From: a bacterium
GTDB taxonomy: Bacteria; Patescibacteriota; Minisyncoccia; JAHIHE01
Reading direction: 5' to 3'
Length of the DNA: 64,000 bases
NCBI GenBank assembly: GCA_030693205.1
Contig: JAUYBG010000010.1
Location: 2,059 to 66,058 of the forward strand
Positions 4,283 through 40,421 of the stretch are shown here, in pieces. Each line of letters opens with the position of its first letter. The first letter of the stretch is position 1. Under the pieces are notes generated by a model, which was given only the letters and a program-made list of their open reading frames with translations, did not search any database and was not told the origin of the DNA. The position numbers were made by a program, and so were the translations under genes.

Positions 4283-4912
4283 ATGATCAAGACTAATTTA
4301 TATAATCAAGAGGGAAAGGTAGTGGGAGAAATGGATCTGCCTGAGAATATTTTTGGACTGAAACCCAAGAAAGACTTGATGCACGAAGCGGTGGTCGCTC
4401 AAGAGGCGAATAGCCGGATAAAATACGCTCACACCAAGACCCGCGGAGAAGTACGCGGAGGCGGAAAAAAGCCATTTGCCCAGAAACACACGGGACAAGC
4501 CAGACAAGGTTCGATCAGGTCTCCGATTTGGAGGCATGGCGGAATAACTTTCGGTCCTACCGCTGACGCTTCCTATGGGAAAAAGATCAATTTGAAAAAG
4601 AAAAGATTGGCGTTGCATATGGCTCTGGCTTCCAAGCTGAACGATAAAGTCTTGTATATTATTGACGATCTGCGCCTTGCCGATGCCAAGACAAAAACTT
4701 TCGCTAAGATCCTGAAAAATCTCGGCGTAGCCAAGACTGCTTTGATCGCGCTGCCCAAGACGGATAAAAATGTCTATTTGGCCAGCCGCAATATTCCCGG
4801 AATAAAATCTATCCTAATCGGATCTTTGAATATAGTGGACGTATTGCGATACAAGAACTTGATAATGCCGAAAGAATCGATAGCCGCAATCGAGAAAACA
4901 TTTAAGATATAA
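4283..4912 (+). CDS. rplD: 50S ribosomal protein L4
   Basis: L4 motif AHTKTRGEVRGGGKKPFAQKHTGQAR and synteny. Confidence 0.95.
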   Translation: MIKTNLYNQEGKVVGEMDLPENIFGLKPKKDLMHEAVVAQEANSRIKYAHTKTRGEVRGGGKKPFAQKHTGQARQGSIRSPIWRHGGITFGPTADASYGKKINLKKKRLALHMALASKLNDKVLYIIDDLRLADAKTKTFAKILKNLGVAKTALIALPKTDKNVYLASRNIPGIKSILIGSLNIVDVLRYKNLIMPKESIAAIEKTFKI

Positions 4913-4928
4913 AATTCATTAAAAGCAT

Positions 4929-5327
4929 ATGACAATTCTTGATAAAGTTAAAAACATCGCCAAAAAACCGGAAGCGGAAAAGGCTGCAAAAGTTGAAAAG
5001 AAAAACGCCGGAAAGGATTTTAAGAAGAACAAGATATCGAAAGATAAGATCAGCGCGATTATTTTTGAGCCGCTTTTCACGGAAAAAATTTCCAATTTGA
5101 TGCCGTTGAATAAATATGCTTTCAAAGTGGCGAACGGAGCCAATAAGATTGAAGTGAAAAAAGCGATCGAAGGGCTTTATGAAGTGAATGTGACGAGCGT
5201 TAATATGATAAAAACCTCAGCTAAGCCGAAAAGAGTCGGAAGACGGGAAATGGTCAAGCCGGGATTTAAGAAAGCGATCGTGACGCTAAAAGCGGGCGAA
5301 AGCATCGAGCCGGCAAAGACCAAGTAA
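4929..5327 (+). CDS. rplW: 50S ribosomal protein L23 with a Lys-rich N-terminal extension
   Basis: Core sequence IFEPLFTEKISNL...KVANGANKIEVKKAIEGLY. Confidence 0.92.
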   Translation: MTILDKVKNIAKKPEAEKAAKVEKKNAGKDFKKNKISKDKISAIIFEPLFTEKISNLMPLNKYAFKVANGANKIEVKKAIEGLYEVNVTSVNMIKTSAKPKRVGRREMVKPGFKKAIVTLKAGESIEPAKTK

Positions 5328-5360
5328 AAAGTTTTAAAATTTTATTCACAGAGAAAGAAT

Positions 5361-6185
5361 ATGGCAATAATAGAATATAAACCAACAACCGCCGGAAGAA
5401 GAGGCGCGTCAGTGGTAAAAAATGATTTCGTAACGACAGCCAGGCCTGAAAAATCCTTGACGCTTGGTCACGCAAAAAAATCAGGACGGGCCAAAGGCAA
5501 GATCTCGACGCGGCACAAGGGCGGCGGAGCAAAAAGATTGTACAGGATCATTGATTTCGGACAGGATAAGGTCAATATTCCGGCCCGGGTCGCTTCGATC
5601 GAATATGATCCGAACCGCTCGGCTTATATCGCGCTTTTGAATTACAAAGACGGCGAAAAAAGATATATTTTGGCCCCGGAAGGATTGAGAGCGAATGATG
5701 AAGTTATCGCTTCGGCCAATGCTCCGGTAAAAACCGGCAACAGATTGATTTTGAAAAATATTCCGGTTGGCACCAATATACACAACATCGAACTGACTCC
5801 GGGAAAAGGCGGGCAGATCGTCCGCACGGCAGGCGCTTTGGCCATAGTAAGAGCCAAGGAAGGCGGCTATGTGCATCTCGGTTTTCCTTCAGGCGAAATA
5901 AGAATGCTCTCGGAATTATGCTGGGCTTCGGTCGGACAGATAGGCAAGGCGGAATTTCGGATGAGAAATTTGGGAAAGGCCGGAAAATCCCGATGGCTGG
6001 GCAAACGCCCGGGCGTGCGAGGTTCGGCGATGAATCCGGTTGACCATCCGCACGGCGGAGGCGAAGGACGCCAGCCGATCGGTTTGAAGCATCCGAAAAC
6101 TCCCTGGGGAAAGATCGCGATGGGAAAGAAAACTAGAAATAAGAAAAAATTATCAGAAAAATTTATTATTAAACACAGAAGATAA
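5361..6185 (+). CDS. rplB: 50S ribosomal protein L2
   Basis: [14 protein letters not shown] start, and the GRNxxGxITxRHKGGG-like [11 protein letters not shown] and [13 protein letters not shown] motifs. Confidence 0.96.
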
Positions 6186-24255: not shown

Positions 24256-25722
24256 ATGATTATGCCAAACCTTAAGCAATTACTTAAAACGCTTAATCTA
24301 AAGCAACAAGCTTATGTAAATTTGAATTTGCCCGATTCTAAAAATGGAGAATATCTTCTTGCCGCTTTTCATTTAGTATCCGGGGGAAAGTTAAACATTC
24401 TGCAGGCGGCGGCGGAAATTGCCGCAGAATCTTCCACCGGCACAACTTTCAAAGTAAACACGGAAACTTCCTTTTCCAGAGAAATGAACGCGCTCGTTTA
24501 TCAGCTTGATCTAAAAAGAAACCTTGTTTGGGTTGCCTATCCCTGGAGACTTTTTGACAGAAGAGGAAATGTGCAGAATATCTTAACCTATATTGCTGGA
24601 AATATTCTTGGAATGAAAGAAGTGAGCGCTTTAAAATTATTAGATGTCTGGTTCCCTCCGGCAATGCTTGAACAGTATGATGGTCCAAGCTATACTCTTG
24701 ATGATATGCGAAAATATTTGAATGTCTATGGCAGGCCGATTTTAGGAACAATCATAAAACCCAAAATGGGATTAACCTCGGCGGAATACGCGGAAGCCGC
24801 TTATGATTTTTGGTCCGGTGGCGGAGATTTTGTCAAGAACGATGAGCCTCAGGCGGACCAGGACTTCTGTCCATACGATAAAATGGTAAAGCATGTAAAG
24901 GAAGCGATGGACAAAGCCGTCAAAGAAACCGGAAGGAAAAAAGTCCATTCGTTTAATGTTTCGGCGGCTGATTTTGACACAATGATCAAAAGGTGCGAGA
25001 TGATTAGAAATGCCGGTTTTGAACCGGGAAGTTACGCGTTTTTAATTGATGGCATTACGGCGGGATGGATGGCAGTACAGACATTAAGAAGAAGATATCC
25101 CGATGTATTCATTCATTTTCACCGGGCGGGACACGGCGGTTATACCAGACCGGAAAACCCAATAGGATTTACAGTATTGGTTTTATCTAAATTTGCAAGA
25201 TTGGCGGGAGCTTCAGGAATTCACACAGGAACAGCCGGCGTGGGAAAAATGAAAGGAAGTCCGGAAGAAGATGTTGTTGCCGCGCGCAATATTTTGCGTT
25301 TTAAAAGCAAAGGGCATTTCTTTGAACAAGAATGGGCGACAATACCCGAAACGGACAAAGATGCCATAAATCTTGTTCATAAAGATATTGCTCACAGGGT
25401 TATTTTAGAAGATGATAGCTGGAGAGGCATGAAGAAATGTTGCCCGATTATTTCCGGGGGTTTAGATCCGACATTGCTAAAGCCGTTTATTGATGTGATG
25501 GGAAATATAGATTTTATTACAACAATGGGCGCGGGATGCCACGCGCATCCAAAAGGAACCGCTGCCGGAGCAAAAGCATTAGTTCAAGCGTGCGAGGCCT
25601 ATAAAAAAGGGATTGATATTAAAAAATATGCCAAAAAACACAAGGAACTGGCAGAAGCTATAAGGTTTTTCTCAAAGGGGAGAGAAGAAATAAAACAAGC
25701 AAGGAATACGGAAAGGAGTTAG
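24256..25722 (+). CDS. rbcL: RuBisCO large-subunit-like protein, form II/III type
   Basis: IIKPKMGLT (catalytic Lys region), GGGDFVKNDE, IHFHRAGHG and GTAGVGKMKG motifs. Confidence 0.88.
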   Translation: MIMPNLKQLLKTLNLKQQAYVNLNLPDSKNGEYLLAAFHLVSGGKLNILQAAAEIAAESSTGTTFKVNTETSFSREMNALVYQLDLKRNLVWVAYPWRLFDRRGNVQNILTYIAGNILGMKEVSALKLLDVWFPPAMLEQYDGPSYTLDDMRKYLNVYGRPILGTIIKPKMGLTSAEYAEAAYDFWSGGGDFVKNDEPQADQDFCPYDKMVKHVKEAMDKAVKETGRKKVHSFNVSAADFDTMIKRCEMIRNAGFEPGSYAFLIDGITAGWMAVQTLRRRYPDVFIHFHRAGHGGYTRPENPIGFTVLVLSKFARLAGASGIHTGTAGVGKMKGSPEEDVVAARNILRFKSKGHFFEQEWATIPETDKDAINLVHKDIAHRVILEDDSWRGMKKCCPIISGGLDPTLLKPFIDVMGNIDFITTMGAGCHAHPKGTAAGAKALVQACEAYKKGIDIKKYAKKHKELAEAIRFFSKGREEIKQARNTERS

Positions 25723-35544: not shown

Positions 35545-36349
35545 AATAGGCATTTAGAGAGAAAAACCATCATTAAACTAATTATTAGGGACAGAGACGG
35601 AAACTTTTATTTTATAAATTATTTTATGGAATATTTAACGACAACCTACCAGGAAAGGAAGCGCAAAAGTTAAACGTCATTATTTTAGTTTTATTAATTG
35701 CCCGCTTCCAAGAGAAAGACGGGTTTTTTAGTTAAAAAAAATAAATTTGTGTGAAAATTGCAGTACATTAAAAATAATGTATCGCAATTTCTACACAACA
35801 GTTTGGGTAGAAAGTTCGCTTACAATTTATATTTATTATAGTCTTAAATCGTCAAGAGGATATTTATTTGCTCTGATCTGCCAATTTGGCGGAACAATGC
35901 GGGTAAGATATTCTAAAGTAAACAACCCCGAACCAATCTGCCAGCGAGCAGATGCTACGGGGTAAAAATCTTCAAAACTAGTAATCGCTGATTGCTAGTT
36001 AAAGTAAAAATGAAAAACTCATACTAAGAGTATATGGTGGATGCCTTGACATAAAAAGTCGATGAAGGACGTGGTGTAACTACGAAAAGCCTCGGTGAGC
36101 CGTTAACAGGCCGTGACCCGGGGGTATCCGAATGGGGAAACCCTTCTGAGTAAACCTCAGAAATTATTATCTGAATTAAGTAGGGTAATAAAGAGAACCT
36201 AGGGAAGTGAAACATCTCAGTACCTAGAGGAAAAGAAAAAAATGTTAATATTGATAACGGTGGCAGACATTATTTATTTAATGCCTACATCGGTATCGGT
36301 ATTATTTATTCCCTGAGTAGTGGCGAGCGAAATGGGAAAAGCCTAAACC

Positions 36350-36592
36350 TCTCGATGCGTGACATCGGAATTTTCAAGCACCAATTTTCAAGCACCAAAC
36401 AAAATTTAAATAACCAAAATTCAAAACTCCAAACAAATTGGAATTTAGAAAATTGGGATTTGGAATTTGATTGGGATTTGGAATTTGGGATTTGGAGCTT
36501 CCGCTGTTGCGCAGCGGGTGGTGTTGCAAGGTGGGTGCGTTATCGGAGTAATCCGGTACAGAGCTAACTAAATGTAATTTGATTAGTCAAAT
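36350..36592 (+). repeat. Roughly 220-nt expansion segment with tandem repeats inside the 23S 5' domain
   Basis: It lies between the conserved GAGCCTAAACC and TTCCTGGAAAGGACG. It contains ttttcaagcacca repeated twice and gggatttggaattt-like units repeated three times. Confidence 0.7.
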
Positions 36593-36762
36593 GTTCCTGG
36601 AAAGGACGACCAAAGAGGGTGATAGTCCCGTAGATGAAAATCATTACATGCTCTGAGTATCTATTCTTAAGTACCATAGGGCCAGAGAAACCCTATGGGA
36701 ATCCGGCAGTACTACTAACTTTGTCGCAAGACAAACTGCCAAGGCTAAATACTTTTTATGAT

Positions 36763-36799
<37 letters not shown>

Positions 36800-38252
36800 T
36801 AGCCCGTTTAGGGCAGTGAAATAGAAACTGAAATCATATACTTACAACGAGTGGGAGCCTTGCTTCGGCAGGGTGACCGCGTGCTTTTTGCAGAACGAAC
36901 CAACGAGTTTGCTAGGTATTGCAAGTCTAAGCTCTTCGGAGCGGAGGCGTAGTGAAAGCGAGGGTTAAATACCCGTTTAGCAATACTTACAAGACCCGAA
37001 ACCAGGTGAGCTAGCCATGAGCAGGATGAACCTCAACGAAAGTTGAGGGGAGGTCCGAACCCATTAGCCGTGCAATACTATGGGATGACTTGTGGTTAGG
37101 GATGAAATTTCAATCGAACTTGGTAATAGCTGGTTCTCTCCGAAATAGCTATAGGGCTAGCGTCCTTTGTTCCACTTTGGGGGTAGAGCACTGAATGGAC
37201 ACGGCTGGACTTTTGTCTACCTTGTCCAAACAAACTCCGAATACCAAAGTGCCAGAGAAGGGCAGTCAGAACGTGAGGGCTAAGCTTCACGCTCAAAAGG
37301 GGAACAGCCCAGATCGTCGTCTAAGGTCCCTAAATCTATGCTAAGTGATTTTAAGGAAGTGAGGTTTCTTAAACAGCTAGGAAGTTGGCTTAGAAGCAGC
37401 CATCTTTTAAAGAGTGCGTAACAGCTCACTAGTCTACTGAAATCTTGCGCCGAAAATGTCCGGGGCTAAGCATAGTACCGAAGACACGGGTTGTCATGTC
37501 CTCCGGGATGTGGCAGCGGTAGGAGAGCGTTCCATACGCAGTGAAGTCTGAGCGCGAGTAAAGATGGAGTGTATGGAAGTGAGAATGTTGGTATGAGTAA
37601 CATGAATTATGGTGAGAAACCATAACACCGAAAGCTTAAGGTTTCCTGGGCAACGAAAATCAACCCAGGGTTAGTCGGTCCTAAGGCGAGGTCGAAAGAC
37701 GTAGTCGATGGATAGCTGGTTAATATTCCAGCACTACTATATGTCATGATATGGAAGGACGCAATGTGGGAGGTTGGGCACATTATTGGATTTGTGTCAA
37801 TATCTTGTAGGCTGATTCGCGAGGCAAATCCCGTGGATCTTTGAAAGCAATTTCATAAAAGCCGAGAGATGTTGGAACTTCTGCCTAAGGGCGGGAGAAC
37901 CTAACTGGGGTCATGTTGCCAAGAAAATTTTCTAATTTATCATATAGTAACCGTACCGCAATCCGACACAGGTGAGCAGGCATCAGCGTGCCAAGGTGTA
38001 CGGGAGAACTCTTGTTAAGGAATTCGGCAAAACAACGGCCGTAACTTCGGGATAAGGCCTGCCTATCGCAAGATAGGCTGCAATAAAAGAAATCAGGGCG
38101 ACTGTTTAACAAAAACACAGGTCTATGCTAACCCGCAAGGGGATGTATATGGGCCGACGCTTGTCCAGTGTCAGAACGTTAAGGTTGGAAGTGAAAGCTT
38201 TCGGCTGAAGCGCTGATGAACGACAGCGGTAACTATAACCGTTCTAAGGTAG

Positions 38253-38630
38253 TGGATTTACTTAAGGAAGTGAATTCACTAGGATTGGAACGGCTATAGG
38301 GAGAACAGTCAAGGAAAAAAAGTAGCTGCCCATTTCTGTAAAAAGAAATGTCCATTTGGCCATATGCTGGAAACTCTGGTGAATCTGATGTTACTATGGT
38401 ATAATACGCACATAGACAATATGAGAAAATATTATGCCGAGTAAAAATACATTCAGTGCAGACAATCAGCAGGAAAGGCCAGAAATATTATAATATTTCT
38501 GGAATCCTCAGAGATCAAACGCCAAAACCATTGATAGAAAGATGGTAAGATATGACCCTATCTCTATGGCGACATAGAGGGATATCAACAAATATCCATT
38601 TCGTTTAATGACGGAATAAAAACAAATGAG
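38253..38630 (+). other. Roughly 378-nt insertion in 23S rRNA at the conserved GGUAG|CGAAAUUCC site. It is a candidate ORF-less group I intron or an intervening sequence.
   Basis: The conserved flanks are contiguous in typical 23S rRNAs. The insert is AT-rich with no long ORF. Confidence 0.6.
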
Positions 38631-39191
38631 CGAAATTCCTTGTCACTTAATTAGTGACGTGCATGAATAGCGGAACGACCCTGGTACTGTCTCAACAAGT
38701 GACCCGGTGAAATCGCATTAACAGTGAAGATGCTGTTTACCTGCAGCTAGACGAAAAGACCCTATGAAGCTTTACTATAACTTGGTATTGAGCCAAATTT
38801 TGAAATGCTTAGAATAGGTGGGAGACTTCGATCCTTAATCTCCGGATTAAGGGGAGTCGCAATATGAAATACCACTCTTTTTACAATTTTGTTCTAACCT
38901 CATACCGTAATCCGGTATAGGAACAGTGCCTGGCGGGTAGTTTGACTGGGGCGGTTGCCTCCTAAAAAGTAACGGAGGCGTTTAAAGGTCGGCTAGGCGC
39001 GGATGGAAATCGCGCTGATAGCGCAAAAGCATAAGCCGGCTTTACTGTGAGACTGACGGGTCGAACAGTTGCGAAAGCAGAATTTAGTGATCCGATGTGT
39101 CCATGTAGGTGGCACAAAGCTCAACGGATAAAAGCTACTCTAGGGATAACAGGCTAGTCCAGTCCAAGCGTCCATAGCGACGACTGGGTTC

Positions 39192-39227
<36 letters not shown>

Positions 39228-39775
39228 AAGAAGCTCCCAAGGGTTTGGCTGTTCGCCAACTAAAGCGGTACGTGAGCTGGGTTCAAACCGTCGTGAGACA
39301 GGTTGGACTCCTATCTACTGCAGGCGTAGATACTTGCGAGAACTCTTTTCTAGTACGAGAGGACCGAAAAGAACGAACCTCTGGTGCACCAATTGTCATG
39401 CCAATGGCATAGTTGGGTAGCTAAGTTCGGACGAGATAAACGCTGAAAGCATATAAGCGTGAAACTCATCTCAAGATTAGGTATCATAGATTCCAGAGAG
39501 ATGATCTGGTAAAATTCTGTCGCAAGACAGAACTGATAGGGTGCAGGTGTAAGTGTAGCAATACATTCAGCCGAGCACTACTAATGAATCATTGGAGTTT
39601 TTCATAACTTACTTTAACCGGCAATTAGCGGGTGTTATGAGAAGATAATGTTTATGATTGATTTGAATACTATATAAATATAAATTTAAGGGAATACGAA
39701 TTTTAGGTATTTACCCCGTTAAATAAAATTTTAATAAATTTTGGATTGTTTTTTTTACAATTCATTTAATAGGGG

Positions 39776-39804
39776 TTGACATTTTATAAAATTAGTGATA
39801 TTGT
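39776..39804 (+). promoter_or_regulatory. Promoter (TTGACA-N17-TATTGT) inside the 23S-5S spacer
   Basis: Consensus -35 and a reasonable -10 about 35 nt upstream of an ATG. Confidence 0.45.
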
Positions 39805-39839
39805 TATTCAGTAAATCATTAATATATAAAAATAAAATC

Positions 39840-40181
39840 ATGGATTCAGAAAAATTTGTTCCAGAAGAAGCAAAAGAGGAATATAGAACAATTAAAATTG
39901 GTGGAAAAGAAGTTAAAATTAAAAAACCAAAAAGACCAGAAGTTGTAGAAGCGGAAGAAAAAGAACAAGGTGAGCCTTCAGAAACAGAGGTTATACCGGA
40001 GCCAGGTTGGGAAAACTATGGAAAAGATACAGCGAAGCGATTGAGTGATGAAGTTTCAGATTCGGCAGGAGAGCGTCTTATTGATTTTGATAAGTTGGAT
40101 GATAACAAAGATAACGAAAAAACTCCTAAGACGGCAAAAGAAGCGATTGAATTATTAAAGAAAAGCAAAGAAGCAAAATAA
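39840..40181 (+). CDS. Small acidic/Lys-rich protein (113 aa) encoded between the 23S and 5S rRNA genes
   Basis: ORF with a low-complexity E/K-rich sequence and its own promoter. The ORF-track start at 39795 was trimmed to MDSEKF. Confidence 0.45.
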   Translation: MDSEKFVPEEAKEEYRTIKIGGKEVKIKKPKRPEVVEAEEKEQGEPSETEVIPEPGWENYGKDTAKRLSDEVSDSAGERLIDFDKLDDNKDNEKTPKTAKEAIELLKKSKEAK

Positions 40182-40303
40182 GATTTGTTTTAAAATTATT
40201 TCATTGAAAATTGATTGTAAATTGAAAATTGAGATTTGTCTGGCTATGCCAGATCCCGCGTAGCGGGAAAAATTAACAACCTCAGTCCTAAAGGACTGGA
40301 ATT

Positions 40304-40421
40304 TGCCCCGGTGCTATAATGGCGGTAATGTACCACCTCTTCCCATTCCGAACAGAGTCGTGAAAGTTACCAGCGCCGATGGTAGTTGGTTTACCAGCGA
40401 GAGTAGGCCAGTGCCGGGGCA
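40304..40421 (+). rRNA. rrf: 5S rRNA
   Basis: TGCCCCGGTG...CCATTCCGAAC...GCGCCGATGGTAG...GAGAGTAGG...CCGGGGCA. Confidence 0.9.

Follow-up and report, generated by a model that had tools for sequence, protein, structure and literature searches.

The 23S rRNA gene in the window contains a 378-nt insert

The window (the whole 64,000-nt stretch of DNA that we analysed) contains a gene for 23S rRNA, and this was the sole 23S gene found in the 64 kb in an Rfam scan. The gene matched the model for bacterial LSU rRNA (RF02541) from model position 1 to 2925 with a score of 2380.9 bits (Table 1). It spans 3594 nt, compared to 2925 positions in the model, a surplus of ~670 nt. Alignment to E. coli rrlH with MAFFT revealed a single 378-nt insertion directly 3' of the position equivalent to E. 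coli U1931. The insertion site, the well-known intron hot-spot L1931, is between U1931 and A1932, in a single-stranded stretch after helix 69. This helix 69-71 region is at the interface of the ribosomal subunits. Domain I of the same gene has additional hairpins.

The boundary of the insert can slide by 0-2 nt because the dinucleotide AG is present at both junctions. The flanks are ...CUAAGGU / AG...378 nt...AUG / AGCGAAAUUCC, and the letters at the junctions are ...AACCGUUCUAAGGU / AGUGGAUUU ... AAACAAAUG / AGCGAAAUUCCUUGUC.... That is, 38253-38630 (right-justified) and 38251-38628 (left-justified) describe the same insert. A 5' exon ending in U together with an insert ending in G is found only in the left-justified version, and intron positions are given below with window position 38251 as nt 1. 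The initial annotation had reported an insert of this length splitting the 23S rRNA near the intron hot-spot at E. coli position 1930, and had pointed out that a shift of 2 nt would give the U-final exon and the G-final insert. The alignment confirmed the split and placed it exactly after U1931, and the shifted boundaries are those of 38251-38628. The minimum free energy (MFE) of the insert was -104.2 kcal/mol, compared to -72.8 +/- 5.7 kcal/mol for shuffled sequences (z = -5.55).

With the insert removed, the 23S rRNA gene was closest to the 23S genes that carry the inserts L098, L123, L126 and L128 (Moranbacteria-type), to that of L046 (Kerfeldbacteria), and to those of a few doubtfully labelled bins. 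(Inserts found at the same site elsewhere are designated by L and a three-digit number.) The identity to these closest genes was only 74-79%. The host is likely a CPR bacterium. The neighbourhood of the gene encodes a homologue of the RuBisCO large subunit, UPF0182, a class II aldolase and FtsW/RodA.

Table 1. Features of the interrupted 23S rRNA gene and its insert, in window coordinates. Intron elements are predicted from the evidence in the last column.
Feature	Position	Strand	Evidence
23S rRNA host gene, interrupted by the intron	36012..39605	+	Rfam RF02541; alignment to E. coli rrlH
End of 5' exon, GGU (E. coli G1929-U1931), exon strand of P1	38248..38250	+	Alignment; homology with relatives
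Group I intron, 378 nt	38251..38628	+	Rfam, alignment, homology, covariation, profile match
P1a extension hairpin, 13 bp, AAGG loop	38251..38280	+	MFE; hairpin of different sequence in all six distinct members
Conserved single-stranded linker AGGAUUGGAAC, consensus AGGAYUGGRAC	38281..38291	+	Shared by the window, L098 and L122-L128
P1b (GGCUAU 38292-38297 with GUAGCU 38322-38327), 24-nt loop	38292..38327	+	Pair count in six members
Internal guide sequence GCC, G38328 opposite the splice-site U	38328..38330	+	...CU/GCC C-P2, as in L004, L056, L058, L017 and others
P2 hairpin (CAUUUCU/AGAAAUG, loop GUAAAA)	38331..38350	+	MFE; place kept in subfamily and class B relatives
P3 5' strand, UUUGGC	38355..38360	+	Pairs with 38521-38526; 6 pairs, 5 with double changes
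P4-P5 domain: P4 (GCUGG/UCAGC), J4/5 AAA, P5, extended P5a-c arm	38366..38470	+	93-100% paired
HEG 5' remnant, ADNQQER, frame 1, over P4'/P6	38458..38478	+	Same peptide in ORFs of L056, L098, L100, L111
P6 and P6a, 4-nt loop at 38489-38492	38471..38508	+	Alignment of L098 and L111; covariation
HEG 3' remnant, FLESSEIKR, frame 3, over P6'/J6-7/P7/P3'	38496..38522	+	Relatives end ...RFLESSETKR
J6/7 and P7 5' strand (CAGAGAUCA)	38509..38517	+	G38513 in G-binding G-C pair
P3 3' strand, GCCAAA	38521..38526	+	RNAalifold; pair counts
P8 hairpin (ACCAUU/GAUGGU)	38527..38546	+	RNAalifold; pair counts
J8/7 (AAGAUA) and P7 3' strand (UGACCC)	38547..38558	+	Family block AAGAUAUAGUCC; pair counts
P9 hairpin, GCGA (GNRA) loop	38562..38579	+	97.7% paired; 6/6 pairs with double changes; GGCGAC loop conserved
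P9.1 (GGAUAU/AUAUCC) and P9.2 (AUUUCGUU/GACGGAAU) hairpins	38580..38617	+	MFE only; analogous hairpins in relatives
3' tail AAAAACAAAUG, terminal omega-G 38628, then 3' splice site	38618..38628	+	Family end ...AACAAnnnG conserved
Start of 3' exon, AGC (E. coli A1932-C1934), possible 3-bp P10	38629..38631	+	Read from sequence

Homology places the insert among the group I introns at L1931

No intron was reported in a gathering-mode Rfam scan of the window. A permissive scan of 38200-38680 gave a full-length match to the group I intron model (Intron_gpI, RF00028; model positions 1-253) at 38326-38579. The score was 32.8 bits (E = 1.1e-6 in the 481-nt search), and the gathering threshold is 50 bits. 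Thus, the Rfam/Infernal check that the initial annotation had proposed for a candidate group I intron fell short of the curated threshold. In the Rfam alignment the insert has an extra ~75 nt in the P5 arm, and the P1/P2 region is unmatched to the model; the low score fits with both. Because the score is below the Rfam cut-off, assignment to group I rests on relatives that pass the threshold and on covariation.

We searched for relatives, with one genome per species, using a pattern in which G replaces U1931: G followed by AGCGAAATTCCTTGTC...TAAKT...GAC.TGCA. The pattern demands a G and then the conserved 3' exon because any group I intron at this position must end in G. There were matches at a minimum of 120 loci, in as many species-level genomes from many bacterial phyla. 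The phyla among the matches listed included Acidobacteriota, Actinomycetota, Proteobacteria, Chlamydiae, Nitrospirota, Eremiobacterota, several CPR groups, and others. Inserts (198-865 nt) were excised from the 98 loci that had an identifiable 5' exon. Nucleotides 104-370 of the window intron were homologous to many of these 98 inserts, with nhmmer E values down to 8.8e-16.

We also built a sequence profile from 17 ORF-less L1931 introns of other phyla, excluding that of the window. Compared to the whole 64-kb window, this profile gave a single match, at 38334-38610 (105 bits, E = 2.9e-32). One of these 17 relatives, the 251-nt intron L038, itself scored 78 bits with Intron_gpI, which exceeds the gathering threshold of 50 bits.

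The core from P3 to P9 is conserved and covaries

The 17 ORF-less relatives and the window intron (18 sequences) were aligned using MAFFT, which was blind to structure. The alignment contains invariant blocks that correspond to J3/4-P4 (AUAUGCUGGAA), P4'-P6 (CAGCAGGAAAG), P6'-J6/7-P7 (AUCCUCAGAGA), J8/7 (AAGAUAU) and L9 (GGCGAC). RNAalifold recovered P3, P4, P5/P5a, P6/P6a, P8 and P9 in the canonical order, with compensatory changes in 35 of its 47 pairs. When P7 was included as a pseudoknot, 89.0% of cells were paired, compared to 71.8% in shuffled alignments (none of 500 reached the observed value) and 34-40% when the registers were slid. The covariation score was 0.480, compared to 0.183 in the shuffles and at most 0.116 in the slid registers.

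In the 18 sequences, P3, P4 and P6 were 100% paired, and P5, P5a, P6a and P9 were 90.6-98.1% paired. P8 was paired in 82.2% of cells family-wide and had double changes at all five of its pairs. The window intron itself pairs at every position of these eight helices. In P7, 95.4% of cells were paired, and both G-C pairs, including the equivalent of the guanosine-binding pair, were invariant in 18/18 sequences. In the window these pairs are G38513-C38557 and G38511-C38558. Two other P7 pairs of the window are kept through double changes, C-G to U-A (found only in the window) and U-A to C-G. Beside the guanosine-binding pair the window has an A.C mismatch (A38514/C38556), where 16 of the 18 sequences have A-U.

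Toward the 3' end, the P9.1 pairs (intron nt 330-335 with 342-347) come from thermodynamic folding only. The last nucleotide, G38628, directly precedes the conserved 3' exon. The 98 inserts are uninformative about this terminal G because the pattern used to retrieve them required a G there. The initial annotation had called for modelling of P1-P9. This yielded P3-P9 supported by compensatory changes, apart from P9.1 and P9.2, which come from folding; the P1 pairing is a proposal, as described below. Judging from homology and from structure, we conclude that the insert is a group I intron, which supports its earlier designation as a candidate.

The 5' region belongs to a subfamily with an extra domain in P1

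The aligned 5' regions of the L1931 introns fall into two architectures. In class A (...CGCUA-GCCUUAG-UAAAA-P3), the guide GCCUUAG pairs with the exon CUAAGGU, and P2 is absent. In class B, a hairpin begins at intron nt 1 and is followed by ...CU/GCC, by P2 (a hairpin whose loop is GNRA-like), and by P3; only GGU of the exon and GCC of the guide pair. The window intron is in class B. U38250 precedes the 5' splice site, and the exon GGU is complementary to G78-C79-C80 of the internal guide sequence, with a putative U.G wobble at the splice site. This proposed exon-guide pairing is 3 bp only and, because the exon is invariant, it is beyond the reach of covariation. The pre-tRNA-Ile intron of Azoarcus, although in a different host gene and of a different subgroup, is a compact bacterial group I ribozyme in which a 3-bp pairing between 5' exon and guide works. 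P2 was checked by folding each member of the subfamily described below; it is present in about half of the 18 aligned sequences, where MAFFT did not align it structurally.

We found that a block of ~47 nt (38281-38327, the linker and P1b) sits between the P1a hairpin and the guide, which directly adjoin each other in introns of the L056 type. Among the matches listed from the search of genomes (at least 120 loci), this pattern was present only in L098 (Candidatus Moranbacteria). It was also present in seven metagenome contigs (L122-L128), and there are six distinct sequences, including the window. In all six, the hairpin that starts at nt 1 ends at the base before AGGAYUGGRAC, and P2 is present with differing sequences. 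In P1b, 35 of 36 cells in the six members were standard pairs, with changes between G-C and A-U and between C-G and U-A. P1 of this subfamily is predicted to form a three-way junction in place of a simple hairpin, because the linker and P1b interrupt its 3' strand before the guide.

The start of the 3' exon (AGC) could form a short P10 with G75-C76-U77 (38325-38327), a position at which relatives have CGCU/AGCU. The 3' strand of P1b abuts the guide and overlaps these P10-capable nucleotides. The exact geometry of P1 and P10 is uncertain because P1b covers the proposed P10 nucleotides and P1a uses intron nt 1-3.

Three other pairings at the 5' splice site were considered and rejected. First, the exon UCUAAGGU could pair with intron nt 10-17 (ACUUAAGG) at 7/8 positions. 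This would put an A-U pair at the splice site instead of U.G, and nt 10-17 are inside the P1a hairpin, which covaries in all members of the subfamily. Second, nt 43-51 (GCUAUAGGG) could pair with the exon at 8/9 positions with a U.G at the splice site. As the main model this was set aside: relatives have A at the position of the G, and nt 43 and 44 covary with nt 76 and 75 (in P1b), a pattern that pairing with an invariant exon does not account for. It is possible that nt 43-51 make an alternative or extra contact with the exon. Third, continuing P1a into the exon through AGGAUUGG would need tandem G.G/A.G mismatches.

The intron appears to have lost a homing-endonuclease gene

The insert contains no plus-strand ORF of more than 30 aa, in agreement with the initial annotation, which had noted that an ORF for a homing endonuclease was absent. 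Several relatives (L098, L111, L056, L100 and others) have a frame of 178-226 aa with the motifs ...ADNQQER...FVDGEG...RFLESSE.... In L098 and L111, which also have the P5 extension of the window intron, an ORF block of ~480 nt is inside the P6a loop. The window lacks this block; a loop of 4 nt caps its P6a stem (CCAGAAAU.../...AUUUCUGG).

The two ends of the LAGLIDADG ORF survive in the window intron where they overlap the ribozyme core (Table 1), so the absence of the homing-endonuclease gene (HEG) is best read as loss. No protein can arise from these remnants because their frames differ. We conclude from these sequence comparisons that the window intron is an ORF-less derivative of the L1931 lineage, whose members normally have a single-motif LAGLIDADG HEG in the P6 loop. 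Such a state is as expected from the cycle of HEG gain, degeneration and loss. In our sample, 21 of 98 inserts were 240-340 nt and therefore have no room for an ORF of 160-200 aa. The core helices were kept after loss of the ORF, partly through double compensatory changes, and this indicates selection on the ribozyme.

Proposed splicing and alternative interpretations

The insert is very probably a resident group I intron at L1931, without an endonuclease, that is removed from pre-23S rRNA by guanosine-initiated splicing. In the proposed pathway, the primary 23S transcript would fold P1-P9. The guide GCC would pair with the exon GGU, with U38250 in the U.G wobble. An external guanosine bound at the G-C pair of P7 would then attack after U38250. 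The terminal G38628 would subsequently occupy the same pocket, with the short P10 (AGC with GCU) holding the 3' exon. Ligation of the exons would restore ...CUAAGGUAGCGAAAUUCC... and release the intron. We infer both the splicing and the P1/P10 pairing from the features described above. Without an endonuclease, homing would be lost, and the intron would be expected to persist only while splicing spares the ribosome from harm.

It is also conceivable, although improbable, that the insert descends from group I introns but is not spliced, and is kept in mature 23S rRNA between helix 69 and helix 71, or that it splices only with the help of a protein. The L1931 group I intron in the 23S rRNA of Simkania negevensis is reportedly unspliced, according to the title of Everett et al. 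1999 ('An unspliced group I intron in 23S rRNA...'). The A.C mismatch in P7 and the exon-guide pairing of only 3 bp are consistent with either version. Dependence on a protein is also suggested by the lack of a maturase-type ORF in the window intron, given that the LAGLIDADG endonuclease of a related L1931 intron from Thermotoga is described as acting as a maturase. Several findings argue against an unspliced intron. Every helix of the core has been kept, including two P7 pairs that were kept by double compensatory changes, and the guanosine-binding pair, J8/7 and the terminal G are intact. In addition, helices 69-71 are at the subunit interface, where keeping another 378 nt would carry a high cost, and this is the sole 23S gene seen within the 64-kb window. 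We therefore favor an intron that is spliced.

Even less probable, in our view, is an intervening sequence of the type processed by RNase III, or an expansion segment, with no ribozyme chemistry, that is either excised without religation or kept. The 23S genes of CPR bacteria hold many short insertions other than introns, according to the survey in PMC11270868, and the extra hairpins in domain I of the gene studied here could be taken in the same sense. The homology to group I introns (E = 2.9e-32) and the covariation in the core argue against this interpretation.

Intervening sequences processed by RNase III replace the tip of a helix (known sites are in helices 9, 25 and 45) and have ends that are paired in a long stem. 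In contrast, the ends of the insert are not paired with each other: in the MFE structure nt 1-30 fold locally into a hairpin, and the 11 nt at the 3' end stay single-stranded. The insertion site, in the single-stranded stretch after helix 69, is also not the tip of a helix. These features, too, argue against an intervening sequence of this type.

Finally, a chimera in which foreign intron-bearing reads were joined into the 23S gene during assembly can be dismissed with near certainty: rRNA genes do assemble poorly, and an independent Logan assembly of the same organism (SRR13727537) breaks at the start of the 23S gene, but the insert is at a canonical intron site with exon sequence perfectly restored on both sides, it is in the middle of a contig (64 kb), and its closest intron relatives are in the closest 23S relatives of the window (L098, L123, L126, L128), a sharing of intron and 23S relatives that is the pattern expected of a resident element.

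Relation to known L1931 introns

Introns at L1931 are known from Simkania negevensis, Thermotoga spp., Synechococcus sp. C9 and S. lividus C1, and also from plastids of chlamydomonads and mitochondria of Acanthamoeba, as summarized in PMC1995217. The published introns are described there as 654-700 nt long with an intact HEG, and the one from Synechococcus as lacking P2 (PMC1995217). By these descriptions, the window intron has in common with them the site after U1931, the ribozyme core, and a single-motif LAGLIDADG frame running into the core (in the window, as remnants). It differs in being 378 nt long, in having no HEG, in having P2, and in having an extra domain in the 3' strand of P1.

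The initial annotation had called rRNA introns characteristic of CPR lineages. They are indeed described as frequent in CPR bacteria (Tsurumaki et al. 2024, PMC11270868). The L1931 introns, at least, are not specific to CPR, as they occur in at least 120 species of many phyla. In the description by Tsurumaki et al., insertion site 23IS7 in CPR 23S genes is position 1931, and one intron there encodes the characterised endonuclease I-ShaI. ORF-less insertions are reported at 23IS6-14, and versions with and without the ORF are highly similar outside of the ORF. Insertions are sorted by Rfam hits, and the account given of them has no secondary structures (PMC11270868). The window intron and the CPR insertions at 23IS7 thus share, as far as the published account goes, the site, probably the host group, and the pattern of ORF-containing and ORF-less versions. 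In that account, as available to us, we found no mention of a three-way-junction domain in P1 for the insertions at 23IS7 (PMC11270868).

The closest structural counterparts of the window intron are L098 (from the Candidatus Moranbacteria MAG CAITOC010000046.1) and L122-L128, which have the same P1a, AGGAYUGGRAC linker, P1b, internal guide sequence and P2. Members of the L098 type also share the P5 extension, and they include the closest 23S relatives of the window. L125 was left out of the comparison of intron length and ORF, as its sequence ends 88 nt in. The seven complete introns in this set are 729-807 nt long, compared to 378 nt in the window. An ORF of the LAGLIDADG type, 178-197 aa, is present in L098 (L123 and L128 are identical to it or nearly so), L124, L126 and L127. 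L122 has an ORF of 124 aa without the ADNQQER, FVDGEG or FLESSE motifs. Members of the L098 type are also without P9.1 and P9.2, and their J8/7-P7 is more divergent than that of the window intron.

The kind of element found here is thus already known, both as L1931 introns and as ORF-less versions in CPR bacteria, and the window intron is a further member. For annotation, the 23S rRNA gene should be described as two exons and a 378-nt L1931 group I intron, rather than as a gene with an expansion segment or a misassembly. The intron appears to be one more case of the cycle of HEG gain, degeneration and loss, one in which the core was kept, including stretches that were once coding, after clean loss of the ORF. 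The occurrence of L1931 introns in at least 120 species-level genomes is far wider than would be gathered from older publications, which cover a handful of cultured examples. Beyond the correct annotation, the window intron itself is of little importance.

The domain in P1 of the subfamily is a modest variant, and we found no description of it in the literature that we looked at, as far as the available parts of those sources go. It is a speculative and rather unlikely reading that the ~47-nt domain opposite the 5' splice site is an undescribed peripheral element, belonging to an L1931 lineage found mostly in CPR-like 23S genes, that alters the construction or the control of the splice-site helix. 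In one version of this idea, P1b could keep the P10 nucleotides unavailable until completion of the first step. It is also possible that the invariant UAGG (38297-38300) beside P1b binds CCUA/UCUA in the exon, making a second exon-binding site through a pseudoknot. Related L1931 inserts of ~200 nt from other CPR genomes (L096, L051, L077 and L019) have kept the domain, and P4-P6 are apparently absent from them. If P4-P6 are truly absent from these inserts, then the P1 domain would be the most persistent part of the element.

Inserts at L1931 in other genomes

At least 120 species-level genomes, spread over many phyla, have inserts ending in G at L1931, the site after E. coli U1931 of 23S rRNA (loci L002-L121 of the genome-contig scan). 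One of these loci, L011, is on a contig of 3.3 kb that was assigned to a bin named Candidatus Woesearchaeota archaeon. This is probably a mis-binned bacterial contig. Three other loci (L111, L050 and L054) carry the label Gammaproteobacteria, yet their 23S sequences are among the closest matches to that of the window and are CPR-like.

In four CPR MAGs (Nomurabacteria, Parcubacteria and Patescibacteria), the inserts at L1931 were only 198-223 nt. They retain a 5' domain of the type found in the window intron, that is, a hairpin starting at nucleotide 1 followed by AGGACUNGGAC. They also retain the J6/7-P7-P3' and J8/7-P7' strands (CGAGAGACCAACGCC and GAAGAUAGAGUCC, respectively), with only ~4 nt in the place of P4-P6. 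A guide-like ACC would give an A-U pair, and not U.G, at the splice site. Judged from these sequence features, the four inserts may be mini or degenerate derivatives of group I introns.

Short inserts at L1931 in CPR MAGs
Locus	Positions	Strand
L096	1888-2085	-
L051	2764-2962	+
L077	5436-5644	+
L019	5852-6074	+

The insert extracted at L1931 from a Thermoleophilia MAG (L007, ~4800-5672, forward strand) was 865 nt. Because it starts with AGCGAAATTCCTTGTCGGG, which is 3' exon sequence itself, its sequence suggests either duplication of an exon segment or an intron located a short distance downstream of 1931, rather than a simple L1931 intron.

The exon-intron junction in the window

TRF identified a direct repeat at 38245-38280, in which the junction UAAGGU/AGUGGAUUUACU recurs as UAAGGAAGUGAAUUCACU (15 of 18 positions identical). 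The P1a hairpin begins at the first nucleotide of the intron, and the second copy makes up its loop and 3' half. The repeat was not seen among the other members of the subfamily that shares the 5' domain of this intron. It may have arisen by chance, given that the stem is palindromic, or through a small duplication.

The rRNA genes and their neighbours

Domain I of the window 23S (36248-36592) has ~280 extra nucleotides, located after E. coli positions 232, 268, 282 and 300. This sequence forms long, imperfect hairpins when folded, and two short motifs (AATTTTCAAGCACC and ATTGGGATTTGGAATTTG) are each present in it as two tandem copies. It had no match in Rfam and looks like an expansion or an IVS-type insertion and not an intron.

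Both 23S and 5S rRNA genes were found, but no 16S rRNA gene was found across the 64-kb window (1-64000). Thus, the rRNA genes are not in a standard 16S-23S-5S operon. The 23S-5S spacer (39606-40306) is unusually long (~700 nt) and AT-rich, with GC content as low as 0.2. It contains a K/E-rich ORF of 128 amino acids (39795-40181) that had no match in Pfam.

RuBisCO-like genes are on record in CPR genomes. The window encodes a RuBisCO large-subunit homologue of 488 amino acids (24256-25722; Pfam RuBisCO_large, E = 1.1e-93), adjoined by a UPF0182 protein of 911 amino acids.
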